Source: Bacteroidota bacterium (GTDB lineage: Bacteria > Bacteroidota > Bacteroidia > UKL13-3). Taken from it: a stretch of DNA of 64,000 bases. The translations under genes and the position numbers were made by a program. Shown in pieces: positions 18,859 to 55,651 of the stretch (the first letter of the stretch is position 1; every line of letters begins with the position of its first letter). The stretch is from assembly GCA_947457395.1 (NCBI GenBank), contig CANGVA010000003.1, positions 78,825 through 142,824 on the forward strand. Reading direction: 5' to 3'. Under the pieces are notes generated by a model that made no database searches, was not told the origin of the DNA, and saw only the letters and a list, made by a program, of their open reading frames with translations.

Positions 18859-19059
18859 AATTTTGGTGTTTTATGGTGTGGTAATTGATTTCGAAACTAA
18901 CAGATAATTTTTATTATTTAGTCGTTTTTCCGTTTTCGGCAACATTATCGGATAAACGGAAAAACCCCTGACTTTATTTTAGGTCAATTAAGGCTGCTTG
19001 TGGAGAATGGAATTTGATTGACACGCAATTACATGCCATTTTTGAAAGAAAAGACCCCT

Positions 19060-27450: not shown

Positions 27451-27580
27451 TGATTGTGCTTAAGCGGGTGTAAAAATAGAACTATTTTGGATTTAGGCCA
27501 TTAAATTATCTGCACATTTATGCCAACCTGAGCCTGATTTTATAACTACGTGTAAATGCCTTAATATTGAGGTGTTAAAA

Positions 27581-28885: not shown

Positions 28886-29628
28886 TGAAACAGGCAGCAA
28901 TTATCATTGGAGCAAGCTCAGGCTTAGGACGCGCATTGGCAGAAGCAATTGCCCGCACAGGCACGGATGTAATAATGAGTGCCCGCGCAGAACAGGAACT
29001 ACAAATTTTGGCCACCCATTTGCGCATCCGTTACCAAATACAGGCAGAGGTTATTCCGTTAGATCTAGCTACCCTTACTACAGCAACTGCTAAAAACTAT
29101 GTTGATCAATGTTTTGAAAAAATGCCACACTGTTCTCAGGTGTATATTACTGCAGGCATTATAGATGAGCTGGATAAAGGAACCGAGGCTGTTGATTATT
29201 TGCCTAAACTTATGCAGGTAAATTGCATGGGCATAAGCTATGTGATGAATGCGTGTTGCCAATGGTTGCAAAATCGGTCAGCCAATATTACCCTTATCTC
29301 TTCCATAGCGGCCATCAGGCCCCGTGGCTCCAATATTGCCTACAGCGCTTCTAAAATTGCACTGGAGTATATGGCATTGGGTTTGAGGCATCATTTTGCG
29401 CAAAGCCCATTGCGCATTCAGGTATACAGGGCTGGTTATATGGAAACCGCTTTAAGCACAGGTAAGAAATTATTGTTTCCTGTTGCAAAGCCTGAGCGTG
29501 TTGCCCGTGTTTTGATTAAAAACAGACATAAAGATACAGGCTTGATCTATGTGCCGGTATTCTGGCTACCTTTATCGTGGGTGCTGCAATATTTGCCTTG
29601 GTTTATATTTAAAAAACTGAAATTTTAA
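28885..29628 (+). CDS. Short-chain dehydrogenase/reductase homologous to DprE2 (decaprenylphosphoryl-2-keto-ribose reductase)
   Basis: Rossmann IIGASSGLGRALA and YSASKIAL (YxxxK). The C-terminal tail LIYVPVFWLPLSWVLQYLPWFIFKKLKF closely parallels the DprE2 tail ...[28 protein letters not shown]. Start overlaps the upstream stop (TAATG at 28883-28887). Confidence 0.75.
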   Translation: MKQAAIIIGASSGLGRALAEAIARTGTDVIMSARAEQELQILATHLRIRYQIQAEVIPLDLATLTTATAKNYVDQCFEKMPHCSQVYITAGIIDELDKGTEAVDYLPKLMQVNCMGISYVMNACCQWLQNRSANITLISSIAAIRPRGSNIAYSASKIALEYMALGLRHHFAQSPLRIQVYRAGYMETALSTGKKLLFPVAKPERVARVLIKNRHKDTGLIYVPVFWLPLSWVLQYLPWFIFKKLKF

Positions 29629-29644
29629 TTACTTTTCCCCCTTC

Positions 29645-30373
29645 ATGAGCAAGTCCAATATCAGTATATTTTTTCCGGTTTATAATGATGAGCGCACCGT
29701 GCAGGCTGTTACAGAAAAAGCACTGGCTTTTGGTAAAGAGTGTGCCGGTTTGTTTGAAGTCATTATTATAAACGACTGCAGTCCGGATAATTCAGGAAAA
29801 ATTGCAGATACATTAGCCCTCACTTATCCAAATGTGCGCGTCATACATCATCCAAAAAATATGGGCTATGGCGCAGCAGTAAAATCTGGTTTGGGTGCAG
29901 CCCAATATGAATATGTCTGTTTTACCGATGGTGATGATGAGTATGATATGGAAGAATTTAAGAAACTCATCAAGCTGAAAGACTATTACGACCTTATAAT
30001 TACCTTTCGCTACAAAAAGATTTATTCCAATAAAAGGATTTTTATTTCTTATATCTACAATCGTTTGCTGCGATGGATATTCAGAACCAACTTTCGTGAT
30101 ATTAGTACTGGTTTACGCCTGGTGAGGAAAGATATATTAGCTGATATAAACCTGATAACAGATAGTCCGTTTATTGGCGCAGAGCTTACTATTAAAACTA
30201 TGCTAAAGGGCTACAGAGTGGGCGAAGTAGGCATACAAACATTTCCGCGTAAATTTGGTCAGGGCGCATCTACCAGCTTTAAAAATATTATGCGCACCAT
30301 TAAAGATATGCGTAAGGTATATCGCGAAATATTTTCAGACCATTATGATTTGCCTAAGAACAGGCAACGATAA
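29645..30373 (+). CDS. GT2-family polyprenyl-phosphate glycosyltransferase (DPM1/DPG-synthase-like; soluble, no TM anchor)
   Basis: IFFPVYNDE, IIINDCSPDNS, TDGDDEY (DxD), MGYGAAVKSG. No hydrophobic C-terminal segments. Confidence 0.8.
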   Translation: MSKSNISIFFPVYNDERTVQAVTEKALAFGKECAGLFEVIIINDCSPDNSGKIADTLALTYPNVRVIHHPKNMGYGAAVKSGLGAAQYEYVCFTDGDDEYDMEEFKKLIKLKDYYDLIITFRYKKIYSNKRIFISYIYNRLLRWIFRTNFRDISTGLRLVRKDILADINLITDSPFIGAELTIKTMLKGYRVGEVGIQTFPRKFGQGASTSFKNIMRTIKDMRKVYREIFSDHYDLPKNRQR

Positions 30374-30384
30374 ATTAATATATT

Positions 30385-31029
30385 ATGAATTACGACCGTA
30401 TTTACGAATATCGCTTTAAGGATGTTGACCGTGAGAAAAAACTCATGACATGGAAAGAGATTGCTACTTTCATATATAATAAGCTGGATAAACCAAAACG
30501 TATGCTTGATCCTGCTGCAGGGGATTGTGAGTTTATTAATCAGATTGCCTCGGAAGAACGCTGGGCGGTTGATATGAGTGAAATAACACCTAAAATGGCG
30601 CAGCAAGGTATTAAGGTAATCACAGGTAATAATTTAGAAGTAGACTTACCCGAAAATTATTTTGATGGGGTTTTTATCTCCAATTTTTTAGAGCACTTGC
30701 ACAGCCAGGAGCAGGTTGCATTTTTTCTGGAGCGCATGTATAAAGCCATCAAACCCGGAGGGCGTATTGCCATCATGGGACCCAACTTTAAATATACCTA
30801 CAAATATTATTTTGATTTTGCTGATCATACTGTGCTGCTTTCTGAAGGCGGAGTTGCCGAGCATTTGTATGGTGCAGGTTTTAATCCCATTGAAGTGCAC
30901 CCAAAATTTTTGCCATTATCATTTAAAAGCAGGTTACCTGTAAATGCATTTTTGGTGCGTACCTATTTAAATATGCCCATGGTTTGGCCTATTATGGGTA
31001 AGCAATTTTTACTCATTGGTCAGAAGTAA
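30385..31029 (+). CDS. Class I SAM-dependent methyltransferase
   Basis: Motif I region LDPAAGDCEF; post-I/II DGVFISNFLEHL, KPGGRIAIMGP. Confidence 0.7.
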   Translation: MNYDRIYEYRFKDVDREKKLMTWKEIATFIYNKLDKPKRMLDPAAGDCEFINQIASEERWAVDMSEITPKMAQQGIKVITGNNLEVDLPENYFDGVFISNFLEHLHSQEQVAFFLERMYKAIKPGGRIAIMGPNFKYTYKYYFDFADHTVLLSEGGVAEHLYGAGFNPIEVHPKFLPLSFKSRLPVNAFLVRTYLNMPMVWPIMGKQFLLIGQK

Positions 31030-31069
31030 AGTTGCCGTAGTAATGCATTTTTTTTAATACTAACGCAAC

Positions 31070-31681
31070 ATGAATATAGCAATTATCGGAACAGGAAATG
31101 TTGGCGGTGCATTGGCTACTGCCTGGGCAGCCAAAGGTCATCATATTTTTCTCGGTGTGCAGGATCTCAATCAGTTTAAGGGTAGGGATTTGCTCAAGAA
31201 TCAACAAACACAGGCATGCTCCATTGCAGAAGCAGTGGCTAAGGCAGATGTGATATTAATGGCCATACCGCCTCAGGCCATTTTTGGTGTGTTAGAATTA
31301 ATGGGTGATGTAACAGGTAAAACCATAATTGATGCCACCAATGCCGTGAGGCTGGCCCCCGATCCCTATAAAACCGTATATCATTGCCTGGCCGATAAAA
31401 CCAAAGCAGATGTGGTAAAATGTTTTAACAGTACCGGTTTTGAAAACATGCTTAATCCGATTTATAATGGGCAAGGCATTGATATGTTTATGGCAGGCGA
31501 TAGTGATAAGGCTAAAGCTATAGCAAGTATTTTGGCAAGCGATGCAGGTTTTGGATCATGTATGGATTTTGGCAAGGCTGATAAGGTTGAACTCTTGGAA
31601 AAATTTGCCCTATCATGGATAAATCTGGCTATTATGCAGGGCCATGGTCGCAACATGGCGTTTAAAGTGGTGCGCAGGTAA
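31070..31681 (+). CDS. NADP-dependent oxidoreductase, F420-dependent-NADP-reductase (FNO/Npd)-like Rossmann protein
   Basis: MNIAIIGTGNVGGALA dinucleotide-binding start; ~200 aa; resembles the FNO/pyrroline-5-carboxylate-reductase-like NADP_oxidored family. Confidence 0.6.
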   Translation: MNIAIIGTGNVGGALATAWAAKGHHIFLGVQDLNQFKGRDLLKNQQTQACSIAEAVAKADVILMAIPPQAIFGVLELMGDVTGKTIIDATNAVRLAPDPYKTVYHCLADKTKADVVKCFNSTGFENMLNPIYNGQGIDMFMAGDSDKAKAIASILASDAGFGSCMDFGKADKVELLEKFALSWINLAIMQGHGRNMAFKVVRR

Positions 31682-31722
31682 GCAACTGCCATCTTGTTTC
31701 AAGTAGTTTTAAAAGAACAGAA

Positions 31723-33333
31723 TTATTGTGCAACCTTAAATCCATCATTGATATCAGAGGTGCGCAGCATTATTTTATCTGCAATGTAATACGTGCAAGG
31801 AAATTGATCCCAGCACAGGTTGTTTGATTGTACCACAAAAACAGGAAACTGATTGATTTGACTTTGTGTGAGTGTATGCTGAGGATAGCGTAGCGGCTTT
31901 ATAAGAGTAATTTTATCTTGGTTATGCCAAATAAGCCAGCATAGCATCAGCGCCACTACTCCCATATATGCTTTACGTGCCATGTTAAATGCAGGTAATG
32001 TATATTGAGACAAGGCTATGCCCATCATCACCACCATATATCCGTACATAAAACGCATATGTGGTCCGCTGTTAAATAACATGAACCAGCCTGCAAGTGC
32101 TGCCAGTGTTTGTATCGGAAAAGATTTTTGTTTAATGGAGATAATCAGCAGGCTCAGCAAAGATGCAACAAACGCTAAAACCATTCCCTTATTAAACAAG
32201 TCGAGTTGATTAAACCAAACCGGCACCCATTGCTCATATGAGAGCTGTGCTGTTTCATAAATATTGGAATAAGGTATGCGTCCCCATCCTTTTAAAACTA
32301 TTTTATCATATTCAAAGTACGAAGCAGGCACTTTCCAGTCTACCTGAAATAGATCTATCTGATTAAATGGATAAAGGAGGAAACCGCCACGTACCACATT
32401 ACCTGCAAGCCATGGCAGCAGCCAGATGCAGCCAAAAACAGCAATTATGGAAACATACAACCAAACCTGTTTGCTGCTGCGCAAGTACCAGAGTAATATT
32501 ATAATTAGAAACACCAGCAGCAAGGCCGTTGCCTTGATTGTGATGCCCCAAAATATCAGCAATGAAATAATGAGGCTGTAAAAGCCTTTTGATGCGTTGC
32601 TTTGTCTGCTCTCCAGGAATAAGTCAAAGCAAAGAAAAATAATACCGGTGATAACAATATCAGGTGTAACGCTGCCAATAAAAGCAGTTTTTACAGTAAG
32701 CAGCAGGAATAAAATAACAGGCACCCTGAACAAACGTTGTTTGGTTTCAAACACATTACGACTAAAATAAATCATGAGCAACACGTACCAAACACCGTTA
32801 AGTACATACACAGATTGCACGTCCATGTTGCGTAAACCGAAAAATGCCTGTAGATGAAACCACCAGTTATTATTTACAAGTGGACGGTTAAAATTACCAA
32901 TGCCAGGTAGCAGTTTGTAATACTCAGACCATTTAATGGCCTGCAGGTGGTAGTCCGCAATATCGCCCGACCCCGGCTTTATGGCTACGCTGATAATTGC
33001 TGTAAGCAGCAGCAGCAAATTAAACCATATGCTTTTGCGAATGCGATACATCAAATCGGGCAACACACTTATCATTTGCTTTTGGCAGGCTGTAAGTGAC
33101 GCGGTGATAAAAATCCAGACTACAACATGACAGCGCCAGTCAATTGGAATGATAAAATGAAGCAGTGAAACGATGCATGAAATAACAGCAAATCCAATAA
33201 TAACCACCAGTGGTGAGCGCAAGTGCCAGGGCTCGTGCTCCCCTGTAAGTTTCATGATAAACAGAATGGTTGTTACTCCTGCAGCATAGCCAATTATAGA
33301 GGCATAGAGCATGAGTAGCAAAACTTCCAGCAT
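31723..33333 (-). CDS. Polytopic integral membrane protein (>=12 predicted TM helices), possible GT-C-type glycosyltransferase or polymerase-like protein
   Basis: 536 aa, almost entirely hydrophobic helices with one sizeable loop; no family motif recognised. Immediately downstream (4 nt) of the YfhO gene. Confidence 0.5.
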   Translation of the reverse strand: MLEVLLLMLYASIIGYAAGVTTILFIMKLTGEHEPWHLRSPLVVIIGFAVISCIVSLLHFIIPIDWRCHVVVWIFITASLTACQKQMISVLPDLMYRIRKSIWFNLLLLLTAIISVAIKPGSGDIADYHLQAIKWSEYYKLLPGIGNFNRPLVNNNWWFHLQAFFGLRNMDVQSVYVLNGVWYVLLMIYFSRNVFETKQRLFRVPVILFLLLTVKTAFIGSVTPDIVITGIIFLCFDLFLESRQSNASKGFYSLIISLLIFWGITIKATALLLVFLIIILLWYLRSSKQVWLYVSIIAVFGCIWLLPWLAGNVVRGGFLLYPFNQIDLFQVDWKVPASYFEYDKIVLKGWGRIPYSNIYETAQLSYEQWVPVWFNQLDLFNKGMVLAFVASLLSLLIISIKQKSFPIQTLAALAGWFMLFNSGPHMRFMYGYMVVMMGIALSQYTLPAFNMARKAYMGVVALMLCWLIWHNQDKITLIKPLRYPQHTLTQSQINQFPVFVVQSNNLCWDQFPCTYYIADKIMLRTSDINDGFKVAQ

Positions 33334-33338
33334 GGTTA

Positions 33339-35783
33339 TTAGCTCTTTTGTTCGGTTTTTCTTCTCCTGAAAAAGGTAAATCCACCCGCAACTACAATCC
33401 CACCATATAAAATAATGGAAGCAAACATTGAAACACGTTCACCCGTTTCTACAACCTCAGGCTCAAACACAAATTCAATGCGATGTTTACCTGCAGGCAC
33501 TTTCATGCCGCGTAATACATAGTTACAGCGAAGATGTTCTGCTGCATTGCCATCAATTGAGGCCTTCCATCCTTTATCGTAGTAGATTTCAGAAAATACT
33601 GCCAGGTTATCCGAACTGCTGTTCGATTCATAAACCAGTTTGTTGGGCGCATAACTTAGCAGTTTAATAGATGATGTAGAATCTGCCGTTGGATTGAATC
33701 CTTTAAGCATTTCAGCAAAACGTTTATCAACCAATGCAGTAGTTTTTGTATTGATTGTTTTAAGTGAGTCTATTTCTGCATCCGCATTATCAACCATCAT
33801 CAGGTTGCTAATAAACCACGCGTTGCCATTTGCTTCCGGATTGGCTTGAGCAAACAAATTATTGGCACTATCACCTACTATAAAGTATTTAACATTGAGC
33901 ATATTAAAAGCCTGCATATTCCCGCGTGATAAGTGAAACTCTATTAATTCCTGATATCTCCGCATTTTAGCGCCATGATATCCGCCAATGGATTTATGCC
34001 AATAGGAGGTGAGGGCATCCTGATCCAGGCGTTGCGTAGTATTGTATACACGGTAATGAATATCTTTATCCTGCAAAATCATTTCATCGGCTTGTGATTT
34101 TGGAAAGGAAGCTTCCAGATTTTTCTTCTTGGTTTCAAAATCTGAATCGTTTAGGTAACGTTTGTCAACGCCCCACAAGTCAATAACAATAAGACCTAAC
34201 AAAACACCCACAAATAATTGCTGCTTCACTTTTCCGTTCAGATAAAACCATATAAGGGTGAATGCAGCACCTATAAACAGTAATGACCTAAGTGCATCCG
34301 CTTTTAGTAAGGCTTCACGGTCCTTAACGATCGATTCTCTAAGCCATTCAGGCAGGCGGTCGTCAACCGGTGAAATGAAGTTAAGAAAAAGATCAGGCAT
34401 AAATGAAAAAACTGCGCATAGCCCCCCAACAATATAAAAGCTGTACAGTAAGGGTTTTTTCAAATCGGCCGGCTTTATTTTTCCTGAAAGCAAATCGCGC
34501 AAGGCAAGCAGGGCAAGCAGCGGAAATGTTGTTTGGGTAATGCACAGAATAAAAGTTACCGAGCGGAATTTGTTATACAAAGGAAAGTTATAGAAGAACA
34601 AATCCGTTAGTGTCATAAAATTTTTGCCCATGGAAAGCATGATGGCCAATACAGAAATGGCCAGTATCCACCATTTTTCAGGCCCTTTGATAACAAATAA
34701 GCCTAGCACAAACAGAAAACAAATGATGGCGCCATAGTATATGGGGCCGGCTGTAAATGGCTGGTCACCCCAGTAAACAGGCATACCCTGAATGATTTGC
34801 TTTGCATTAGGAACCCCGTTTTGCTTTAAGATTTTATAGGTTTCGGATGAGGTGCTGAGTTCTGCCGAACTGGAGCCGCCATAAAAATTAGGGATGAGCA
34901 GGGTAAATGGTTCTGCAACACCATTGCTCCATTGCAGGGCATAATCTTTATCCAATCCGGAGGAGGCAATAGCGGCATTACCTTCGCCTGTAGCCGTTTT
35001 GGTAAGTTCTGATTTGCCACGTATACTATACTTGCCATATTCTTCTGTTGGTAGCAGATTGTTGGCGCCTGTTGCCACACCAACGGCTGCGGCAACAGCC
35101 AGAAATACACCGCAAATAAGTAAGTGTGCGATCTTTTTGTCTTTGGCTGCAATCACAATCTCGGCTATCATCCACACGCCAATCAGAATCATTAGGTAAT
35201 AGGTTATTTGCAAGTGGCCTGCAGCCAGCTGTAGCGATAAAGCAATACCTGTGAGCAAGGCCCCGATAAGCCTGTTTTTGCGTAAAGTATAGTTGATACC
35301 TGCAAGCACCAGAGGCATAAAGGCAATGGCATTGCCTTTGCCTACGTGCCCTGCATCTATATTGATGAGGTTAAAAGAGGAAAACATAAATGCCAGACTT
35401 CCTGCAATGGCCAGCCAGGGCGAGACCTCGAAGGTTAGCAATAAGATATAAAAGCAAATAAACAACAGAAACATCGTGTCTACCGGGTTAGGTAAAACCC
35501 GGCTAATAAAATCACTTACCGTTGATGTGAAGTTGTTTTTATAAGATGGCCCGATGAGATAGGTGGGCATGCCGCTAAACACAGAATTGGTCCAAAAAGT
35601 GCGCTCTCCGCTTGCCTTTTGATATTGTGCAATTTCATTGTAGGTAGCTTGCCATTGCTGCACGTCATGTTGTTTTAGTGCTTTCCCTGAAAGTAACGGA
35701 TTAAAATAAATGATAATGGCAGTAAGGGCAATGATAATGGCAGCCAGATGAGGAAACCATTTTTTCTGCAAAAGTGAATTCAT
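33339..35783 (-). CDS. YfhO-family membrane protein (GT-C fold; polyprenyl-phosphate-sugar-dependent periplasmic glycosyltransferase family)
   Basis: N-terminus MNSLLQKKWFPHLAAIIIALTAIIIYFNPLLSGKALKQHDVQQWQATYNEIAQYQKASGERTFWTNSVFSGMPTYLIG matches the conserved start of Bacteroidota YfhO-family proteins (...QHDI.Q..G...EI..YR..TGEE.LW.NSMFGGMP.YL) as I recall them. ~800 aa, multi-TM N-terminal half with a large C-terminal soluble domain. Confidence 0.7.
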   Translation of the reverse strand: MNSLLQKKWFPHLAAIIIALTAIIIYFNPLLSGKALKQHDVQQWQATYNEIAQYQKASGERTFWTNSVFSGMPTYLIGPSYKNNFTSTVSDFISRVLPNPVDTMFLLFICFYILLLTFEVSPWLAIAGSLAFMFSSFNLINIDAGHVGKGNAIAFMPLVLAGINYTLRKNRLIGALLTGIALSLQLAAGHLQITYYLMILIGVWMIAEIVIAAKDKKIAHLLICGVFLAVAAAVGVATGANNLLPTEEYGKYSIRGKSELTKTATGEGNAAIASSGLDKDYALQWSNGVAEPFTLLIPNFYGGSSSAELSTSSETYKILKQNGVPNAKQIIQGMPVYWGDQPFTAGPIYYGAIICFLFVLGLFVIKGPEKWWILAISVLAIMLSMGKNFMTLTDLFFYNFPLYNKFRSVTFILCITQTTFPLLALLALRDLLSGKIKPADLKKPLLYSFYIVGGLCAVFSFMPDLFLNFISPVDDRLPEWLRESIVKDREALLKADALRSLLFIGAAFTLIWFYLNGKVKQQLFVGVLLGLIVIDLWGVDKRYLNDSDFETKKKNLEASFPKSQADEMILQDKDIHYRVYNTTQRLDQDALTSYWHKSIGGYHGAKMRRYQELIEFHLSRGNMQAFNMLNVKYFIVGDSANNLFAQANPEANGNAWFISNLMMVDNADAEIDSLKTINTKTTALVDKRFAEMLKGFNPTADSTSSIKLLSYAPNKLVYESNSSSDNLAVFSEIYYDKGWKASIDGNAAEHLRCNYVLRGMKVPAGKHRIEFVFEPEVVETGERVSMFASIILYGGIVVAGGFTFFRRRKTEQKS

Positions 35784-44400: not shown

Positions 44401-45197
44401 GTAATTTCTTTATTACTGAAATTTGTAACAGTTTTACCGGTTTGTACGCGTAGGCTGCCTTCTTCATTAATACCCATAGGAATGCCCTCTTCCGGTTCTT
44501 TATCTATTAAAAAGCGAGTTTGCAAACCTTTACGGTACATAACTTGTTCGTAAGCAGCAATAAGTGCTCCCAAATCCTGCATATACATTTTGTTAATGCT
44601 GCGCTGCAAGCAATTAATCAATAATTTTAGCAGGGATTTTAGCTCATAATTTGCACCGGTTAGCTGTGCCAAGGATGTGGCATTGCTGCTTGTAAAATGT
44701 GTTTGGTTTATATTCATCCCAATGCCGCAAATGCTTTGCCTGATAAACTCTCCCTGCAGGCTGTTTTCTATTAGTAAGCCGGCAATTTTTTTATCACCCG
44801 CATATATATCATTTGGCCATTTGATGCTTGCCTGCCCATTGGCATATGCAGAAACGAATTCATGCACGCCTAAACTTAATGCCAGGTTTATTTTTACTTG
44901 TTCCTGCGCATGTAGGTTGTGTGGGAATAATACTATGCTTACCGTAAGATTCAGATCTTTTGCTGCTTCCCACTTATTTTCTCCCTGACCCCTTCCTGCA
45001 TATTGGTAATGAGCACAAATAACCGCTCCGTCATCACAGGCGCCCCGCTCGCATAAGTGTTTGGCTATGTTATTGGTAGAATCTGCTTCATCTAGCCAAA
45101 TGACAGAAGATCCAATGTGATGTTGCAAAATGTTTACCTTTGCAGCCAAAGATAGAAAAAATGGCGAAGAAAGAACCTGCAAAAAAGAAAGCAGCAC
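44388..45197 (-). CDS. birA: Biotin--[acetyl-CoA-carboxylase] ligase (BirA, catalytic domain only)
   Basis: WLDEADSTNN, YAGRGQGENKW, KWPNDIY.GDKKIAGLLIE. The ORF-track start at 45197 is GTG and overlaps the divergent rsfS ORF; the true start is probably further in (for example TTG at ~45149). Confidence 0.75.
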   Translation of the reverse strand: MLLSFLQVLSSPFFLSLAAKVNILQHHIGSSVIWLDEADSTNNIAKHLCERGACDDGAVICAHYQYAGRGQGENKWEAAKDLNLTVSIVLFPHNLHAQEQVKINLALSLGVHEFVSAYANGQASIKWPNDIYAGDKKIAGLLIENSLQGEFIRQSICGIGMNINQTHFTSSNATSLAQLTGANYELKSLLKLLINCLQRSINKMYMQDLGALIAAYEQVMYRKGLQTRFLIDKEPEEGIPMGINEEGSLRVQTGKTVTNFSNKEITWLQ

Positions 45198-45634
45198 CTA
45201 AAAAAACAGCAGTAAAAAAAGTAAGTACCAAGCCCAAAGCAGAGCGACCCAAAACAAAGAAAGTTGCAGATGTTACTACCTATAGCAGCATGGCACTTGC
45301 AAAGGCTGTGGCACAGGGTATGTTTGAGTTAAAGGCAGAAGACATTAAGATACTGGATATGCGAAACATTGATAAGGCATCAGCTGACTTCTTTGTTATT
45401 TGTCATGCAAAATCAGATAAACAGGTGGAAGCTATTGGTGATTCAGTAGAAGAAGAAGTTTTTAAAATATTTAAAGAATGGCCGTGGCACCGTGAGGGCT
45501 ATGAAAATTTGGAGTGGGTGTTATTGGACTATATAGATGTGGTGGCGCATATTTTTCAGCAGGAAAAGCGCGAGTTTTATGCAGTAGAGGAACTGTGGGG
45601 CGATGCCGTAGATATCCCTTTTGAGGGAAAATAG
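45161..45634 (+). CDS. rsfS: Ribosome silencing factor RsfS (Iojap family) with a Lys/Ala/Pro-rich N-terminal extension
   Basis: Core DIKILDMRNIDKASADFFVICHAKSDKQVEAIGDSVEE...WVLLDYIDVVAHIFQQEKREFYAVEELWGDA matches the RsfS/DUF143 fold. It is preceded by MAKKEPAKKKAAPKKTAVKKVSTKPKAERPKTKKV. The ORF-track start at 45140 is TTG. Confidence 0.8.
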   Translation: MAKKEPAKKKAAPKKTAVKKVSTKPKAERPKTKKVADVTTYSSMALAKAVAQGMFELKAEDIKILDMRNIDKASADFFVICHAKSDKQVEAIGDSVEEEVFKIFKEWPWHREGYENLEWVLLDYIDVVAHIFQQEKREFYAVEELWGDAVDIPFEGK

Positions 45635-45884: not shown

Positions 45885-47048
45885 ATGACTACAGAGCAGC
45901 AACTTGAATTGTCTATTGTAATGCCTTGCCTAAATGAGGCTGAAACAATTGGTGCATGTATTGAAAAAGCAATACGTTACTTAAATCAGCATCATATTAG
46001 GGGAGAAGTAATTGTTTCTGATAACGGAAGTACCGATGGCTCCATTGCTATTGCCGAAAGGCTTGGCGCCCGTGTGGTGCATGCTACTGAAAAGGGTTAT
46101 GGCAGCGCATTGATGTATGGGATAGAAGCAGCATTTGGCAAATATGTAATCATGGGTGACTCGGATGATAGCTATGATTTCTCTGCTCTCAATCCTTTTC
46201 TTATAAAACTACGTGAAGGTTACGATTTGGTGGTAGGCAACCGCTTTAAAGGCGGAATTGGCAAAGGTGCCATGCCTTTTCTGCATAAATATTTAGGTAA
46301 TCCGGTCTTGTCATTTATTGGCAAATTGTTTTTTCATTCACCTGTAAATGATTTTCATTGTGGTTTACGCGGCTTCAGACAGGATATCGTCTCGCTGTTA
46401 AATCTCCGTACCACGGGCATGGAGTTTGCTAGTGAGATGATTGTGAAAGCAAGCTTATTTAAGTTGCGTATCTGCGAAGTGCCAACTACGTTGAGTGTGG
46501 CTGGTCGTAGCCGCCCACCGCACCTGCGCACTTGGCAAGACGGCTGGCGGCATCTACGCTTTTTACTTATTTACAGTCCGCGCTGGCTTTTTTTATATCC
46601 CGGAATATTGTTGATGCTAACCGGTATGCTATCAGGCGGATTTATTATGAATGGCCCTGTTCATTTGTTTAATATTTATTTTGATACCAACACCTTGCTT
46701 TATTCAGGAGCTGCTGCCATTATTGGTTTTCAGTTAATGGTGTTCGGAATTTTTACGCGCAGGTATGCCATTCAAACTGGATTAATGCCCGACCAAAAAA
46801 CAATTTCTCTGGTAGAAAAATGGCTAACTCTGGAACGAGGAATTGTAGTTGGTGTGCTCATTACCCTTGCCGGTGTTGCAGGTTCTGCTTACTCTTTGTA
46901 TCTATGGGATCAGGTTGATTTTGGAACACTGGAATATTCTTCAATTCTGCGTGTTGTTATACCATCGGTTGTTTTTATTATTCTGGGCATTCAAACCATT
47001 TTCTCAAGTTTCTTTTTAAGTGTGCTTTCCCTTAACCGCAAGCGATGA
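45885..47048 (+). CDS. Membrane-anchored GT2 polyprenyl-phosphate glycosyltransferase (GtrB/ArnC/DPM-synthase-like, with C-terminal TM helices)
   Basis: LSIVMPCLNE, VIVSDNGSTDGS, MGDSDDSYDF (DxD), GYGSALMYG. Four hydrophobic helices in the C-terminal 150 aa. Confidence 0.8.
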   Translation: MTTEQQLELSIVMPCLNEAETIGACIEKAIRYLNQHHIRGEVIVSDNGSTDGSIAIAERLGARVVHATEKGYGSALMYGIEAAFGKYVIMGDSDDSYDFSALNPFLIKLREGYDLVVGNRFKGGIGKGAMPFLHKYLGNPVLSFIGKLFFHSPVNDFHCGLRGFRQDIVSLLNLRTTGMEFASEMIVKASLFKLRICEVPTTLSVAGRSRPPHLRTWQDGWRHLRFLLIYSPRWLFLYPGILLMLTGMLSGGFIMNGPVHLFNIYFDTNTLLYSGAAAIIGFQLMVFGIFTRRYAIQTGLMPDQKTISLVEKWLTLERGIVVGVLITLAGVAGSAYSLYLWDQVDFGTLEYSSILRVVIPSVVFIILGIQTIFSSFFLSVLSLNRKR

Positions 47049-47593
47049 AGGCGTTTGATTACTGGCTGCAAAAAAAAAGAATTGCACAGGCTGCGGCATT
47101 TATTAATACAGGCGCTCATGTGTTAGATATTGGTTCATATGATGGCGCACTCTTTAAGCAACTGTACGATAAAAATATTACTGGAGCTGGCGTAGATCCT
47201 CTGGCTAAAACGGCCGGTTATGGCCATTACCGCTTGGTAAAGGGTTTATTTCCACAGGCATTTCAACCCGATGAGTTGTTTGATTGTATTACCATGCTGG
47301 CTGTTTTGGAGCATATTCCGGTAGGGGAGCAGCCTAAACTTGCCCAAGCCTGCCACCAACACCTGAAACCAAAAGGCAGGGTAATTATTACGGTTCCTGC
47401 GCCACAGGTAGATTATATATTGGCAGTTTTGCGCTTTTTGCGCATCATAGACGGCATGTCGCTGGAGGAGCACTATGGCTTTAAAACAACAGATACCCCG
47501 CACATTTTTTCTTCACCTCTATTTAAACTCCTCAGCCACAAAACATTTCAGTTTGGGCTTAATCATGTATTTGTATTTGAAAAAGTATCATAA
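47045..47593 (+). CDS. Class I SAM-dependent methyltransferase (paralogous in type to 30385..31029)
   Basis: VLDIGSYDG (motif I), FDCITMLAVLEHI, KPKGRVIITVP. Start overlaps the GT2 stop (ATGA at 47045-47048). Confidence 0.7.
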   Translation: MKAFDYWLQKKRIAQAAAFINTGAHVLDIGSYDGALFKQLYDKNITGAGVDPLAKTAGYGHYRLVKGLFPQAFQPDELFDCITMLAVLEHIPVGEQPKLAQACHQHLKPKGRVIITVPAPQVDYILAVLRFLRIIDGMSLEEHYGFKTTDTPHIFSSPLFKLLSHKTFQFGLNHVFVFEKVS

Positions 47594-47633
47594 AGGTCTT
47601 TTCTTTACAACTTATTATTAAGCAGCAAGTATT

Positions 47634-49064
47634 GTGAGCAATTCAATTAAAGTAGCAGTTATTGGTGCCGGTCCTGCCGGTATCACAGCTGCATATCAAT
47701 TAAGCAAAGAAATATCATCGGTTGATATATATGAGGCCAGCTCGTCTGTTGGGGGCCTTGCCAAGTCGGTTGAGCTATGGGGGCAAACTGTTGATATTGG
47801 TCCGCACCGTTTTTTTAGTAGCGATACAAGAGTAAACTCTTTATGGCTAGAGGTTGTAAAAGAAGACTATGCTATGGTAAACCGCCTTACGCGTATCCTC
47901 TATAAAAACAATTTATATTTCTATCCAATTAAAGCACTTGACGCGCTTAGTAAACTGGGCCTATTTGAAGCAGCACGCTGTATGCTTAGTTTTGGTCTGG
48001 AAAGAATATTGCCAACCAAGGATAAGAGTACGTTTGAAGGATGGGTGCGCAGCCGCTTTGGGAAAAGGCTCTATGAAATATTTTTTAAAACCTACAGCGA
48101 AAAACTTTGGGGTATTCCCTGCAATGAACTGGATGCTGATTTTGCAGCACAACGCATTAAAAAACTCTCCTTGTGGGAGGCGGTAAAAGCGGCACTGTTT
48201 GGTGATAAAGATAAAAAGCACAAAACGCTGGTGGATGAATTTGCTTACCCATTGCAGGGAACAGGTATGGTTTATAATCGGATGGAGCAGCTGATTAAAG
48301 AAAAAGGTGGCAAAGTATTTTTAAAAACACCTGTAAAGCGTGTGATTGTTGAAGGTGGCATGGCCAAGGGGCTTGAACTGGAAAACGGTGAGATAAAATA
48401 TTACGACCATATTATTTCTTCCATGCCACTTACGCTGCTGGTAAGTCGCATTGATGAAGCACCCCAGCAAATAAAAAGTCTGAATGCACAACTGCGTTTC
48501 AGAAATACCATTATTGTTTTTGTTGAGGTAGATGCAACCAATTTGTTTGAAGACAATTGGCTGTATGTGCATTCAACAGATTTACGCACCGGGCGTATTA
48601 CCAATTTCAGAAACTGGGTACCTCAATTATATAAGGATAAAAAAACCAGCATACTTGCTTTGGAATACTGGTGCTATGACGAAGATGATTTCTGGAAATG
48701 GACAGATGAACAGTTGAACAATTTAGGTATGGAGGAAATACGTAAAACCGGATTAATTGGCGAGGCAAATATTTTACATGCACATACGTATCGCATACCA
48801 CGTTGTTATCCTGTATACTCAAAAGGGTACAAAGAAATTCTGAGCCCTGTTGAGCAATACCTAAGCAGCATTCAGCATCTACATGTAATTGGCCGATATG
48901 GTGCGTTTAAGTATAACAACCAGGATCACTCCATTTTAATGGGTATGCTGGCAGCTGAAAATATTTTAAAGCATACCAAGCACAATCTTTGGGAAATAAA
49001 TACTGATTACGAAAGTTATCAGGAAAGTTCAGTTATTACTAAAACCGGGCTGGTAAAAAAATGA
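47634..49064 (+). CDS. FAD-dependent oxidoreductase of the UDP-galactopyranose-mutase (Glf)-like / amine-oxidase-like family
   Basis: N-terminal KVAVIGAGPAGITAAYQL...IYEASSSVGG (FAD Rossmann). FGKRLYEIFFKTYSEKLWGIPCNELDADFAAQRIKK parallels the E. coli/Klebsiella Glf segment [33 protein letters not shown], recalled from memory. C-terminal GRYGAFKYNNQDHSILMG. GTG start at 47634 (no upstream in-frame ATG). ~100 aa longer than bacterial Glf. Confidence 0.6.
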   Translation: MSNSIKVAVIGAGPAGITAAYQLSKEISSVDIYEASSSVGGLAKSVELWGQTVDIGPHRFFSSDTRVNSLWLEVVKEDYAMVNRLTRILYKNNLYFYPIKALDALSKLGLFEAARCMLSFGLERILPTKDKSTFEGWVRSRFGKRLYEIFFKTYSEKLWGIPCNELDADFAAQRIKKLSLWEAVKAALFGDKDKKHKTLVDEFAYPLQGTGMVYNRMEQLIKEKGGKVFLKTPVKRVIVEGGMAKGLELENGEIKYYDHIISSMPLTLLVSRIDEAPQQIKSLNAQLRFRNTIIVFVEVDATNLFEDNWLYVHSTDLRTGRITNFRNWVPQLYKDKKTSILALEYWCYDEDDFWKWTDEQLNNLGMEEIRKTGLIGEANILHAHTYRIPRCYPVYSKGYKEILSPVEQYLSSIQHLHVIGRYGAFKYNNQDHSILMGMLAAENILKHTKHNLWEINTDYESYQESSVITKTGLVKK

Positions 49065-52003
49065 GTAAGAAAAACACAAGTAAACCGGCCGCTGAGCCGG
49101 TAAAAACAGTAAGTGATCAGGAGCTTACTTTTTTGTTTGTTTCAAAAGGTACTGCTTCAGATGCCAACCTGATTGCTCAGGCTATATTAAAGGTGCGAAC
49201 CGAAGCCTCATTGGTAGTAATGGATTGGAGTTGTGATGCAGAAACCCAACAGGCTATTGCTGCACTCAGAGAGAAAGGACGCTGTCATGTAATAAAAAAT
49301 ATGGATGAGTGGCAGCAACACGCGGGGCAAGTAGTTTATGTGGTAGATGATGCTGCTTCATTTAATCCGCAAGCAGTAGTAACCTGTTTTGCTGCACAAA
49401 AAAAATCGTTCACACATACAGATGCAGTTTATGCAGGTGAGTTTAACAAACAGTCGGGTAAGTTACCGCTTTCTGTTTTTCAAAAAGCAGGTATTGGTTT
49501 ATACAATTTACTGGCTTCAATGCTGCTGCCTGCAGGCATCAAAGATTTTACACATCCATTTATATTTTTTGGCAAGGATGCAGCATTAAAAGGTATTACA
49601 TCCGGTCATACCAAAAGTATCTCCGTTTGCAGCAGGCTGGCTTATTTGCAAACACCTTTCATATCATTAAACCTTACAGGCAAAGAACATCCTTATCGAA
49701 AAGTTCGTTTTAATGTAATTAGCAGCAATATACTGGCCCCGCGCATTAGCTGGTTTATTAAAGATCCGTTGGTGCGTTACGGTGTAGAAGATGCCGCAGG
49801 TTATCAGCCATTATACCGTTTGCTTTTTGTGGCCTTTTTTCTGTTTGCATTTATTGCCATGCCATACTTGAGTCAGGATTTTGGTATTACATGGGATGCA
49901 AAGCGCCACAATCAATATGGCTATCAGATGCTCAATTATTTTACCTCATTTGGCAGTGATTCTACCGCATTATCTGCTACATCACCCATTCAGGAGTTTA
50001 GATACTACGGTGAGCATTTCAATGTAATCAGTGCATTTTTTAATACTTATTTTGGTGTGCTGGGTGAGTTTGAAATGCGCCATTTGCTTAATGCTTTGTA
50101 TGGATTGCTGGCCATGTTATTTGCAGCATTGGCTGCCAAAGAAATCACCTCCTGGCGTGGAGGCTTTTTTGCTTTTGTATTGATTTTTTGTAGTCCCGTA
50201 TTTTTCGGACACAGCATGAATAACCCAACGGATATTCCTTTTGCAGCGGGTTCTGCTATGGCACTTTATTATTTATTAAAGGTGCTTAAAAATTTACCTG
50301 CACCAACATTATCGCATCTGGTATGGTGTGCAGCAGGTATAGGCATGGCCATCGGATCTCGTGTGGGTGGCATCATCTGGTATGCCTACACCGGTTTGTT
50401 TCTTGGCTTGGCATGGTTGTTTATTGCAAAGAAAGATGGCATGGGTAAAGCCATTAAAATGATTTGGCCTTATGCACGTATCTTATTGCTTATCGTGATT
50501 ATTGGTCACTTGGTTGGTATTTCCTTATGGCCGTTTGCCCAGCAAAAACCATTTACCAACTGGTATGAGGCACTTAAAAAATCAACTGAGGGTGCTTACT
50601 TTACCTATAACCATGAATTATTTGAAGGTGTTCGGATGTACATGGCCAACGTGCCCTGGTATTATTTGCCTAAGTTTATTTTTATTAATACACCGGAAGT
50701 GGTTTGGGCCGGTTTGCTTTTACTCGTGCCGCTTATCTGGGTTTTAAAGAAAACGTATACCCGCTGGTACCTCATTGGTGTGGTATTATTTGTTGCAATA
50801 TTTCCTATAGCTTATGCTGAGGTTCAGAGCATGTATTATTATAATGGCTGGAGGCATTATCTGTTTGTATATCCGCCAATTGTGGTGTTGGCTGCTTGTG
50901 GCTGGGATGCCTTGGGCGCTGTTATCAGAAATAAAATGGCATCACATCTTGCATTGGCAGGCGTGCTGGTTTTAAGTATGCTTCCGGTTTCGTGGATGAT
51001 TGCCAATCATCCCAACCAATGTGTGTATTTTAATACCCTTAGTGGCGGAACCCGGGCAGCTTATGGTAAATACGAAATGGATTATTACTCTAACTCATGC
51101 CGTGCCGCAGCAGAATGGCTTTCCAAGCAAGAGCCCAATAAAAAATTACTGGTAGGCATCAATAATGAACCACTTACTGCATCCTACTATGCCAATAAGT
51201 TTAATCCCAATATGGAGTTCAGGTGGATGCGAGAGTATGAGGAACAAAAAATCCCTTGGGACTATGCTATCCTAACCTCACGCACATATTCTTCAAAAGA
51301 GTTGGCTAATGGAGCATTCCCTCCTAAAGGAACTGTTTATACAGTTGAAGCAGATGGCATGCCGCTGGCGGCTGTTGTTAAAAGGGAAAATGACTGGATG
51401 CCCAAGGGGTATCAGGCATTTGAAGCCAGAAATTATGATACCGCACTTATCTGTTTTAGGAATGCCGAAGCCTACAACCCAAAAGATGAAGAGGTTTTTC
51501 GCATGCTGGGTTTAACTTTCATGGCGATGCGTAATGCAACAGAAGCCACCAGAAGTTTAAATAAAGCCATTGATATATATCCTGAAAATTACATGGCATG
51601 GTCGGCTCTGGGCTTGGTAGAAATTAACCTAAATAAAAATCCGGATAAAGCTATTGAATATTTTAGAAAAGCCAATGAGTATAAGTTTAATTATACCGAT
51701 GCATACTATTACACAGCCATGGCATACTATCAGAAAAAAGATTTTTCTGAAGGAATAAAATATCTGGAGATGGCAGTAAAACGTGGCGGTGGTAGTGTGG
51801 CTGATGTTTATTATAATCTTGGACTCGGCTATTTTAATACAGGCAGTTATAAAAAAGCGGAAGACAACATGATACTAGCACTTACGCTGGAGCCTAACAA
51901 TGCTATGTCATACCGCTTACTTGCAGAAGTGTTTAGCAAACAAGGTAAAAATGCCGAAGCTGAGGAGTGTATGAGAAGATATGCAGCACTGGGTGGAAAA
52001 TAA
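49061..52003 (+). CDS. Large membrane glycosyltransferase-like protein: N-terminal cytoplasmic GT-A-like domain, GT-C-like multi-TM core (ArnT/PMT-type topology) and C-terminal TPR repeats
   Basis: aa ~1-240 soluble (VVYVVDDAASF resembles a DxD region). aa ~250-650 has >=10 TM helices, with Asp-containing first loop YLSQDFGITWDAKRHNQYGY. aa ~770-980 has tandem TPR-like repeats (AEAYNPKDEEVFRMLGLTF..., AIDIYPENYMAWSALG..., YYNLGLGYFNTGSYKKAEDN...). Start overlaps the upstream stop (ATGA at 49061-49064). Confidence 0.6.
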   Translation: MSKKNTSKPAAEPVKTVSDQELTFLFVSKGTASDANLIAQAILKVRTEASLVVMDWSCDAETQQAIAALREKGRCHVIKNMDEWQQHAGQVVYVVDDAASFNPQAVVTCFAAQKKSFTHTDAVYAGEFNKQSGKLPLSVFQKAGIGLYNLLASMLLPAGIKDFTHPFIFFGKDAALKGITSGHTKSISVCSRLAYLQTPFISLNLTGKEHPYRKVRFNVISSNILAPRISWFIKDPLVRYGVEDAAGYQPLYRLLFVAFFLFAFIAMPYLSQDFGITWDAKRHNQYGYQMLNYFTSFGSDSTALSATSPIQEFRYYGEHFNVISAFFNTYFGVLGEFEMRHLLNALYGLLAMLFAALAAKEITSWRGGFFAFVLIFCSPVFFGHSMNNPTDIPFAAGSAMALYYLLKVLKNLPAPTLSHLVWCAAGIGMAIGSRVGGIIWYAYTGLFLGLAWLFIAKKDGMGKAIKMIWPYARILLLIVIIGHLVGISLWPFAQQKPFTNWYEALKKSTEGAYFTYNHELFEGVRMYMANVPWYYLPKFIFINTPEVVWAGLLLLVPLIWVLKKTYTRWYLIGVVLFVAIFPIAYAEVQSMYYYNGWRHYLFVYPPIVVLAACGWDALGAVIRNKMASHLALAGVLVLSMLPVSWMIANHPNQCVYFNTLSGGTRAAYGKYEMDYYSNSCRAAAEWLSKQEPNKKLLVGINNEPLTASYYANKFNPNMEFRWMREYEEQKIPWDYAILTSRTYSSKELANGAFPPKGTVYTVEADGMPLAAVVKRENDWMPKGYQAFEARNYDTALICFRNAEAYNPKDEEVFRMLGLTFMAMRNATEATRSLNKAIDIYPENYMAWSALGLVEINLNKNPDKAIEYFRKANEYKFNYTDAYYYTAMAYYQKKDFSEGIKYLEMAVKRGGGSVADVYYNLGLGYFNTGSYKKAEDNMILALTLEPNNAMSYRLLAEVFSKQGKNAEAEECMRRYAALGGK

Positions 52004-54562: not shown

Positions 54563-55651
54563 ATGGGAATAAAGAAGCTCTTTTTTATTTTATTGCATGC
54601 CATTGTCTTTGCTGCAAATGCACAACAGGATTCGTTGCGTAGTGTTTTTAGTTATGGGGCAACCCTTCATAAGGGCTTTATTTTTGCCCATAGCAGGGAG
54701 GTACAAAATACAGCCAATTCTTATCCTACAGGTTTTCAAATAGACTTTAACTGGCAACTGGCTGATGCCAAAACCTGGAATACTTGCTATTGCTATCCAA
54801 AAACCGGATTTTTTATCCAGTACTTTAATTTTGACAATCAGATTTTGGGCCATGCCATTACCACAGCCGCGTTCATTGAACCATATTTTTCTTTTACGAA
54901 TCGCATCAATATGGCATTAAAGGCAGCAGCAGGATTATCTTATTTAACCAATCCGTATCATCCCGTAAATAATCCAAGCAACTTGTCATATAGTTTACCG
55001 GTTACCGGTTTTGTTTCATTGGGTTTGGGTGCTCACATTAAACTTTCGCAGCGTTTAAATATGAGTGCATATGTTCATTATAACCATGTATCTAACGGGG
55101 GTATCAAAGACCCGAATAAAGGTGTAAACTGGCCAACGGCTGCTTTGGGTATAGACTATAAGCCTATTGCAGCAGTTCTTCCTGTGAGGGAAAAAATAAG
55201 ATATAAAAACTATAAGGGTAAGCCACCCCGCTTGGATATTAGTGCATTTTGGTCGAGCAAAACGGTTCAGGCAGGAGAGAAGGATAGATGGATGATTGGA
55301 GGAGTAGCTGCGCAGATGAGCAAGCAAATCGGCATATTTAATGCACTTACCTTCGGAGCGGAATGGAATATAGATAATTCACTCAGGGAAAGACTCAAGC
55401 GCGATGGGAAAACCGATATAAGCAATCAGCGGATGGCTATTACCGGTGGTCATGAATTTTTAATGGGTAAGATTATTTTTAGTCAGCAACTGGGTATTTA
55501 TCTATTTAACCCAAGTGGATATTTTGATCCGGTTTTTCAACGTTATGGATTATGGTATCGATTTACCGAGCATTGGGGTGTGGGCATGAACGTGCTGGCA
55601 CACCGGCAGGTTGCCAATTTCCTTGATTTCAGGTTAGTTTATAGTCTTTAA
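54563..55651 (+). CDS. Acyloxyacyl hydrolase / PagL-like lipid A deacylase family outer-membrane protein
   Basis: Signal peptide; beta-barrel-like alternating pattern; His-x-Ser-Asn-Gly catalytic motif in YVHYNHVSNGGI. Confidence 0.55.
   Translation: MGIKKLFFILLHAIVFAANAQQDSLRSVFSYGATLHKGFIFAHSREVQNTANSYPTGFQIDFNWQLADAKTWNTCYCYPKTGFFIQYFNFDNQILGHAITTAAFIEPYFSFTNRINMALKAAAGLSYLTNPYHPVNNPSNLSYSLPVTGFVSLGLGAHIKLSQRLNMSAYVHYNHVSNGGIKDPNKGVNWPTAALGIDYKPIAAVLPVREKIRYKNYKGKPPRLDISAFWSSKTVQAGEKDRWMIGGVAAQMSKQIGIFNALTFGAEWNIDNSLRERLKRDGKTDISNQRMAITGGHEFLMGKIIFSQQLGIYLFNPSGYFDPVFQRYGLWYRFTEHWGVGMNVLAHRQVANFLDFRLVYSL

Follow-up and report, generated by a model that had tools for sequence, protein, structure and literature searches.

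In the periplasm, hexopyranoses, 4-amino-4-deoxy-L-arabinose (L-Ara4N) and, since 2024, pentofuranoses derived from phosphoribosyl pyrophosphate (PRPP) are known to be transferred from polyprenyl-monophosphate donors. The locus described here raises the question of whether a hexofuranose may be delivered from such a donor as well. It consists of four genes located between positions 45885 and 52003 of a 64,000-nucleotide (nt) stretch of DNA from a Bacteroidota bacterium (contig CANGVA010000003.1; hereafter, the window), encoding a membrane-anchored family 2 glycosyltransferase (GT2), a small methyltransferase, a flavoenzyme resembling UDP-galactopyranose mutase (UGM), and a large protein in which a glycosyltransferase core of the C fold (GT-C) is combined with tetratricopeptide repeats (TPR). 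Based on homology and gene context, we give somewhat better than an even chance to the operon encoding an extracytoplasmic furanosylation system that relies on a lipid-monophosphate donor and a GT-C transferase, and in which UDP-galactopyranose (UDP-Galp) would be converted to UDP-galactofuranose (UDP-Galf), loaded onto a lipid carrier to yield polyprenyl-phosphate-Galf (polyprenyl-P-Galf), possibly in methylated form, and transferred in the periplasm.

The operon and its flavoenzyme

All four open reading frames were confirmed at their predicted coordinates on the plus strand. The GT2 gene (45885-47048; 387 amino acids [aa]), a candidate polyprenyl-phosphate sugar synthase, is followed by that of a soluble, class I S-adenosylmethionine (SAM)-dependent methyltransferase (47045-47593; 182 aa), by that of a long-form, eukaryote-like FAD enzyme which is the candidate pyranose-furanose mutase (47634-49064; 476 aa, GTG start), and by that of the GT-C/TPR protein (49061-52003; 980 aa). 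The initial annotation had considered all of them to be translationally coupled. This holds for two of the three junctions, where stop and start codons overlap in an ATGA (at 47045 between the first and second genes, and at 49061 between the third and fourth), but not for the junction between the methyltransferase and flavoenzyme genes, which are separated by a 40-nt spacer. All four genes were found in the same order on a metagenome contig (L086) whose large protein is 79% identical to that of the window. Given this repetition and the recurrence of sub-sets of the genes in dozens of loci, the arrangement is not due to chance. Near-identical or identical proteins originated from uncultured Bacteroidota/Sphingobacteriales metagenome-assembled genomes (MAGs), in which they are annotated as 'glycosyltransferase family 2 protein', 'FAD-dependent oxidoreductase' or 'protoporphyrinogen oxidase', and 'tetratricopeptide repeat protein'; an exact look-up of the 980-aa protein of the window returned zero loci.

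The flavoenzyme belongs to NCBIfam NF005548 (PRK07208.1-4, 'hypothetical protein'), which it matches over residues 6-470 with 550.4 bits for a cut-off of 389. A single-sequence search of the PDB aligned it over its full length with the UGMs of Trypanosoma cruzi (TcUGM) and Aspergillus fumigatus (AfUGM) with an E-value of 3.7e-22, and a profile built from 36 sequences matched the same two enzymes end-to-end (7.4e-30 for TcUGM and 2e-29 for AfUGM), protoporphyrinogen oxidase (PPOX) reaching an E-value of 3.6e-10. Identity to eukaryotic UGMs is approximately 20%, while the similarity of bacterial Glf to the flavoenzyme is limited to the first ~170 residues. The AlphaFold2 (AF2) model of the protein (pLDDT 84.7) led to the same relatives: in Foldseek, the top 34 PDB matches were all eukaryotic UGMs (AfUGM and TcUGM; TM-scores of 0.78-0.83, E ~1e-30), and PPOX came next at ~0.70.

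Residue correspondences were read from the HMM alignment in A. fumigatus numbering, and invariance was scored over 36 homologues. Invariant positions comprise H58 of the His loop (AfUGM H63); R174 and R321, which correspond to the essential arginines R182 and R327; the phosphate/sugar ligands Y392, R421, Y427 and N429 (AfUGM Y419, R447, Y453 and N457); the aromatic residues of the uridine pocket Y97, F150, W159, W309 and Y311 (AfUGM Y104, F158, W167, W315 and Y317); and Y154. The position of AfUGM N163 is occupied by serine or threonine in the family, which we take to be the residue of bacterial Glf. The identification of the protein as a Glf-like flavoenzyme in the initial annotation is thus borne out by sequence, fold and catalytic residues alike. 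By homology, catalytic residues and context, the first step of the pathway would be the conversion, by this soluble enzyme with reduced flavin, of a nucleotide sugar from its pyranose to its furanose form, most likely UDP-Galp to UDP-Galf.

The family further displays an invariant C-terminal tail of ~27 aa (aa 450-476, 48981-49061; WEINTDYExYQESSVITKTGL) that eukaryotic UGMs do not have, and part of which (aa 457-463) was modelled at low confidence. Neither a transmembrane (TM) segment nor an amphipathic anchor was detected in the flavoenzyme, and its tail may serve to dock the enzyme onto a membrane partner.

The GT2, the methyltransferase and the GT-C/TPR protein

The GT2 carries a GT-A domain (Pfam PF00535, 3.7e-28, 99 bits) followed by four predicted C-terminal TM helices (aa 235, 271, 313 and 348; hydrophobic span aa 235-366). 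Its best NCBIfam matches were AglJ (2.7e-36), a haloarchaeal dolichyl-phosphate (Dol-P) hexose transferase (4.5e-22), mycobacterial PpgS (2.3e-18) and ArnC (5e-8), all four under their equivalog cut-offs (AglJ 125.5 bits for a cut-off of 325, PpgS 66 for 370 and ArnC 32 for 529). In the PDB, the best match was the dolichyl-phosphate mannose synthase (DPMS) of Pyrococcus (5mlz, 1.1e-12), followed by ArnC and GtrB. Orthologues share 67-72% identity and possess a GT2_TM_C domain (PF26629). The motifs NE, DNGSTD, DSD and D-F-H-C-G-L-R-G-F are conserved across 14 orthologues, the nucleotide-binding and DxD motifs being intact. Collectively, these features support the prediction, already made in the initial annotation, of a membrane-anchored polyprenyl-phosphate-sugar synthase of the DPMS/AglJ/ArnC type. 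Its homologies suggest that, on the cytoplasmic side of the membrane, it would move the sugar from the nucleotide onto polyprenyl (undecaprenyl) phosphate.

As predicted, the second gene encodes a small class I SAM methyltransferase (Methyltransf_23, 6.1e-17). Zero TM segments were predicted in it, and comparison with the PDB yielded no informative relative. From its conserved position in the operon, the enzyme may act in the cytoplasm, on either the sugar or its lipid-linked form.

The AF2 model of the 980-aa protein (pLDDT 87.9) falls into four parts, in keeping with the GT-A/GT-C/TPR fusion that had been proposed. The first (49061-49795, aa 1-245) is a cytoplasmic GT2/GT-A domain, modelled as an alpha/beta fold over aa 22-240 with pLDDT values of 80-90 and aligned by hhalign with a profile of small 242-aa GT2s (probability 98.8%, E 8e-17). 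A weak PF00535 match is retained in some homologues. Judging from its motifs, this domain is degenerate: N149, D162 and K115 are conserved, but the DxD and nucleotide-binding DxxSxD motifs are not. It is probably non-catalytic and, speculatively, could couple the transferase to donor synthesis. As far as profile similarity tells, its origin is the family of small GT2s represented in cluster A, a second gene cluster of the window described below. In a separate observation, distant relatives of the GT-C core are 640-720 aa long, mostly devoid of TPR, and accompanied by an apparently intact small GT2 that is either fused to their N-terminus or encoded directly upstream (loci L126, L133, L137 and L161, and L131, L136, L150, L151, L154 and L164), which suggests that an ancestral synthase-transferase pair gave rise to the degenerate N-terminal domain.

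The second part (49796-51010, aa 246-650) is the polytopic GT-C core. Pfam PMT_2 and PMT both matched above their cut-offs, the latter (PF02366) barely so (23.5 vs 22.7). The core has a GT-C fold (GT-C_A), and its structural matches all use donors linked to polyprenyl phosphate or pyrophosphate; PMT, ALG12, AglB and ArnT were comparable among them and, since ALG12, AglB and ArnT score equally well, the core is not assignable to a specific family. A W278-D279 pair invariant in 42 sequences is located in the first extracytoplasmic loop, eight residues past the first TM helix (aa 250-271). From this fold and the adjacent GT2, we infer that the core uses a polyprenyl-phosphate-linked donor.

The last TM helix is followed by a conserved alpha/beta domain (51011-51394, aa 651-778; pLDDT >85), the invariant motifs of which include NHPN..VYF, DYY, NNE and W722..R724, and by a C-terminal TPR domain (51395-52003, aa 779-980) of about six repeats that is evident from Pfam (TPR_2 4.7e-19, TPR_1, TPR_16 and others), from helical repeats over aa 779-976 of the AF2 model, and from TPR matches in the PDB. 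Both domains are predicted to be periplasmic from the topology of the GT-C structures matched. Once the lipid-linked sugar has been flipped, a step for which the operon harbors no gene, the GT-C core would transfer it by way of the invariant D279, the fold being shown and the chemistry being deduced from it. The acceptor, perhaps a protein, perhaps a glycan, would be held by the periplasmic alpha/beta and TPR domains.

Gene neighborhoods and competing explanations

Two samples of gene context were analyzed, one centered on relatives of the GT-C/TPR protein (80 metagenome loci) and the other on relatives of the flavoenzyme (80 genome loci plus five earlier loci, 82 of which were usable). In the first sample, a GT2 of the 387-aa type adjoins the GT-C/TPR gene in ~15 of 19 orthologous loci with sufficient upstream sequence, such that the GT2 is indeed co-conserved with the large membrane protein. 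A small methyltransferase lies between the two in 16 of ~19 informative loci, belonging to the 182-aa type in 10 loci and to a divergent 201-aa Methyltransf_23 type in six more. Because of this co-conservation, the GT2, the methyltransferase and the GT-C/TPR protein are considered the core of the system. The flavoenzyme is its more mobile member, and was found next to GT-C/TPR in four metagenome loci (L086, L087, L088 and L090, in the last three of which it is usually transcribed divergently) and in nine genome loci. The initial annotation had listed the four genes as those expected for making a UDP-hexofuranose, loading it onto a lipid and optionally methylating it; the domain identities and linkage of this set stood, whereas the methyltransferase turned out to be anything but optional, and the furanose product is one that we deduce.

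The most telling of the individual loci, a distant one (L112:6974-11726), encodes, in a single operon, a canonical Glf (TIGR00031, 326.5 bits for a cut-off of 303.75), a small ArnC/PpgS-like GT2 of 234 aa, and a GT-C/TPR homologue of 973 aa with no close relative among the proteins collected. Its layout parallels that of the window operon, except that the long-form flavoenzyme is replaced by a textbook Glf.

The flavoenzyme family is large: a scan of 185,579 species-representative genomes gave matches in at least 566 of them, and identities are ~60-70% across MAGs labelled Bacteroidota, Leptospirales, Chlorobiales, Myxococcota, Acidobacteriota and others, some of these bin labels being doubtful. 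A GT-C-like polytopic membrane protein is encoded within three genes of the flavoenzyme in 41 of the 82 loci. Twenty-three of these neighbors are of the GT-C/TPR type; the remainder are PMT_2 proteins or proteins without assignment that have 8-11 TM segments, some of which weakly resemble the GT-C core at the profile level. The GT-C-like membrane proteins that adjoin the flavoenzyme come from at least five distinct families. GtrA is encoded directly 5′ of the flavoenzyme in 10 loci. GalE, present in nine (TIGR01179, 401-454 bits for a cut-off of 262), is the commonest and most tightly linked of the sugar-nucleotide enzymes in the neighborhood, the usual order being GalE, GtrA, flavoenzyme. A short-chain dehydrogenase/reductase (SDR) encoded near the flavoenzyme in Leptospirales was considered as a UDP-xylose synthase, an identity that would have pointed to L-arabinofuranose, but proved to be a GDP-mannose 4,6-dehydratase; no UDP-xylose synthase was identified at the flavoenzyme loci. 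Separately, at one Bacteroidota MAG locus (L001:8001-15235), the flavoenzyme gene is followed by those of a PMT_2 GT-C, a second polytopic protein, a UbiA-family prenyltransferase, a methyltransferase and a HAD phosphatase; here, a mutase module appears to lie beside a pentofuranose module of the PPPRS type.

Several results weigh against a system built on UDP-Galf. The top Pfam match of the flavoenzyme is Amino_oxidase (7.8e-21), and the protein scores below the cut-offs of both GLF (PF03275; 21.2 bits for 26.3) and TIGR00031 (40 bits for 303.75). Two substrate contacts of UGM are changed, AfUGM Q107 to K100 and N207 to V200, both of them invariantly in the family, and the substrate may therefore differ from UDP-Galp. 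GalE is not the sole sugar-nucleotide enzyme near the flavoenzyme, since a UDP-glucose 6-dehydrogenase recurs there in six loci (L003, L016, L022, L048, L073 and L080) and the GDP-mannose 4,6-dehydratase in three (L003, L022 and L031). Most loci with the GT2, methyltransferase and GT-C/TPR genes are devoid of an adjoining flavoenzyme, as far as adjacency goes, and L112 is the only one of 165 loci to show a canonical Glf beside a GT-C/TPR homologue. A dedicated small flippase (GtrA, SMR or MATE) was found neither in the operon nor nearby in the window, as judged by protein size and TM count, and the idea that the four-TM domain of the GT2 could be a built-in GtrA-like flippase was rejected upon comparison with GtrA (hhalign probability 0.9%). 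Finally, no polyprenyl-P-Galf donor was found in a search of the literature outside subscription journals.

Among the alternatives, the one that survives best, and which we nevertheless regard as unlikely, takes its cue from the completeness of the triad at the majority of loci that have no adjoining flavoenzyme. The GT2, the methyltransferase and the GT-C/TPR protein would then use a pyranose donor (for example polyprenyl-P-mannose or polyprenyl-P-glucose, possibly methylated), as the products of the nearest characterized relatives of the GT2, Dol-P-Man or Dol-P-hexose, might lead one to expect, and the flavoenzyme would supply UDP-Galf to cytoplasmic Leloir transferases acting on the same glycan. 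This explanation sits poorly with the association of the flavoenzyme with at least five GT-C-like families and GtrA in half of the loci, often with no Leloir glycosyltransferase nearby. In the window, moreover, the stop codon of the flavoenzyme gene overlaps the start codon of the GT-C gene, and L112 presents the order Glf, small GT2, GT-C/TPR.

The invariant changes at the positions of Q107 and N207 would find a natural place in a second alternative, less probable again, according to which the flavoenzyme, while still a mutase, acts on a nucleotide sugar other than UDP-Galp (such as UDP-L-arabinopyranose, UDP-GalNAc, UDP-GalA or a GDP-6-deoxyhexose) and the lipid donor carries the corresponding furanose. 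The UDP-glucose dehydrogenases and GDP-mannose 4,6-dehydratases near the flavoenzyme point in the same direction, and GalE-type enzymes are known to interconvert UDP-xylose and UDP-L-arabinose as well. Opposing this, GalE is the most frequent and tightest neighbor, in the order GalE-GtrA-flavoenzyme, a canonical Glf occupies the equivalent position in L112, and a UDP-xylose synthase was not identified.

In a third alternative, the flavoenzyme would act on the sugar already loaded onto the lipid and contract its ring (polyprenyl-P-Galp to polyprenyl-P-Galf), in parallel with the remodelling by DprE1/DprE2 of the sugar on decaprenyl phosphate. The mycobacterial gene order is Rv3789 (GtrA)-DprE1-DprE2-AftA, and that of GtrA, flavoenzyme and GT-C mirrors it; several loci of this kind have no GT2 nearby, the glutamine that contacts uracil is replaced by an invariant lysine, and the invariant C-terminal tail is specific to the family. 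The uridine-pocket aromatics and every diphosphate-binding arginine and tyrosine of UGM are nonetheless invariant, no TM or amphipathic anchor was detected, and we know of no precedent for ring contraction on a lipid-linked sugar, all of which leave this possibility with little credit. The same slim prospect attaches to its most general form, in which the NF005548/PRK07208 flavoenzymes of hundreds of species in many phyla would not be nucleotide-sugar mutases at all, and would contract the ring on the lipid carrier beside GtrA and GT-C. The best explanation is the less radical one, that these flavoenzymes make up another class of UDP-sugar mutase in bacteria, one that resembles the eukaryotic enzymes and would feed an as yet undescribed polyprenyl-P-Galf donor.

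Least probable is a redox enzyme of the amine-oxidase/PPOX/phytoene-desaturase superfamily acting on the polyprenyl carrier or a sugar hydroxyl, which the best Pfam match (Amino_oxidase), the database annotations ('protoporphyrinogen oxidase' or 'FAD-dependent oxidoreductase') and a PPOX TM-score of ~0.70 might suggest, but which was rejected because UGMs are ahead in both sequence and fold, PPOX reaching only 3.6e-10, and because the catalytic residues specific to UGM are invariant.

Genomic setting and relation to known systems

A 250-nt intergenic stretch precedes the GT2 gene. Scans for sigma-70 consensus promoters and terminators, a consensus unsuited to Bacteroidota, returned no more sites than in shuffled sequence and were thus uninformative. 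Downstream of the operon lies the gene of a secreted PF00756 esterase, the likeliest start of which is the ATG at 52058, and ~2.5 kb downstream that of a homologue of PagL-family lipid A 3-O-deacylases (54563-55651; PF09411, 3.6e-10), which hints that the neighborhood is concerned with outer-membrane and lipopolysaccharide remodelling. On the upstream side, the ribosome silencing factor RsfS (45140-45634) displays an N-terminal extension of ~50 residues that is rich in lysine, alanine and proline (MQPKIEKMAKKEPAKKKAAPKK...), in the manner of a histone-H1 tail. Farther away, the gene at 19018-20475 encodes a protein of 485 aa in which nine TM segments are predicted; Pfam gave no match at E <= 1e-5, and the product could be one more membrane protein of the transporter or glycosyltransferase-like kind.

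Cluster A (27572-35783) encodes, on the plus strand, a DprE1-like FAD oxidase and a DprE2-like SDR (both below their equivalog cut-offs), a soluble 242-aa GT2, a methyltransferase and an F420-type reductase, and, on the minus strand, a 536-aa protein with nine TM segments and an 814-aa protein of the YfhO family. The initial annotation saw in it a parallel route to a furanose donor. This was not established: the DprE1/DprE2-like proteins are accompanied by the small GT2, and no UbiA-type synthase was seen in the cluster, so that a lipid-linked sugar made by the GT2 might be epimerized on the lipid. Cluster A may remodel a lipid-linked sugar.

Should the four-gene operon work as an extracytoplasmic furanosylation system, the path from a nucleotide sugar through a flavin mutase to a lipid-linked hexofuranose would represent a new class of donor. 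Functions would be given at the same time to a large family of 'hypothetical proteins' and to the GT-C/TPR protein, which is conserved in Bacteroidota and whose sole annotation at present is 'tetratricopeptide repeat protein'. The flavoenzyme family also bears on the origin of eukaryotic UGMs, being their closest bacterial relative found in this analysis. Eukaryotic UGMs are drug targets in fungi and trypanosomatids. To our knowledge, Galf is absent from mammals, which would make such surface glycans potential antigens.

Compared to the eukaryotic-type UGMs of A. fumigatus and T. cruzi, the flavoenzyme shares the fold (TM-scores of 0.80-0.83), the His loop, the essential arginines, the ligand residues and the uridine-pocket aromatics, and differs by a lysine for Q107, a valine for N207 and the extra invariant C-terminal tail. 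It departs from bacterial Glf in falling below the GLF and TIGR00031 thresholds, its likeness to that enzyme being restricted to the first ~170 residues. The GT2 has in common with P. furiosus DPMS, its nearest structural relative, and with archaeal AglJ a GT-A domain and four TM helices; it is set apart from AglJ by a score of 125 bits that remains below the equivalog cut-off of 325. The GT-C/TPR protein combines a GT-C core with C-terminal TPR. Set beside the protein O-mannosyltransferases TMTC1-4 and PMT, in which a GT-C is joined to TPR or MIR domains, it has no MIR domain and carries an additional cytoplasmic pseudo-GT2 domain. No TMTC chain was present among the structural matches listed, which therefore do not gauge its similarity to TMTC.

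The three-component systems of the Gtr/Arn type include GtrA/GtrB/GtrV of Shigella and Salmonella, CsbB/GtcA/YfhO, and ArnC/ArnEF/ArnT. As in these systems, a predicted membrane-anchored GT2 would load polyprenyl monophosphate and a GT-C would transfer the sugar outside the cytoplasm, and the direct adjacency of relatives of the flavoenzyme to GtrA in 10 loci adds to the resemblance to Gtr systems. In contrast to them, the operon has no flippase gene and comprises a mutase candidate and a methyltransferase in addition, its GT-C is fused to a degenerate GT2 and to TPR, and its GT2, with four TM helices, is of the DPMS/PF26629 rather than the GtrB type. A search of the literature outside subscription journals found nothing on PRK07208 and no system combining UGM, GtrA and GT-C, the only pertinent work being the 2024 paper on pentofuranoses discussed below. 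As far as that literature goes, the four-gene system is an undescribed variation on three-component glycosylation.

The comparison extends to the pentofuranose three-component systems, made up of PPPRS, a MATE flippase and a GT136 GT-C (Kelly et al. 2024, PMC11127046), and to the mycobacterial decaprenyl-phosphate-arabinose (DPA) pathway summarized in the same paper (UbiA/Rv3806c, DprE1/E2, Rv3789 and Aft/Emb). All lipid-linked furanoses covered there derive from PRPP via UbiA-type synthases and epimerases, with no mention of mutases or hexofuranoses (PMC11127046). What the operon would share with these systems is a GT-C that delivers a furanose carried on polyprenyl monophosphate, along with auxiliary enzymes that determine which sugar it is. 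The two differ at the point of entry: the pentofuranose and DPA donors are made from PRPP by a UbiA-type synthase and epimerized on the lipid, whereas the operon, in which Pfam revealed no UbiA-type (PF01040) protein, is predicted to start from a nucleotide sugar by way of a flavin mutase and a GT2.

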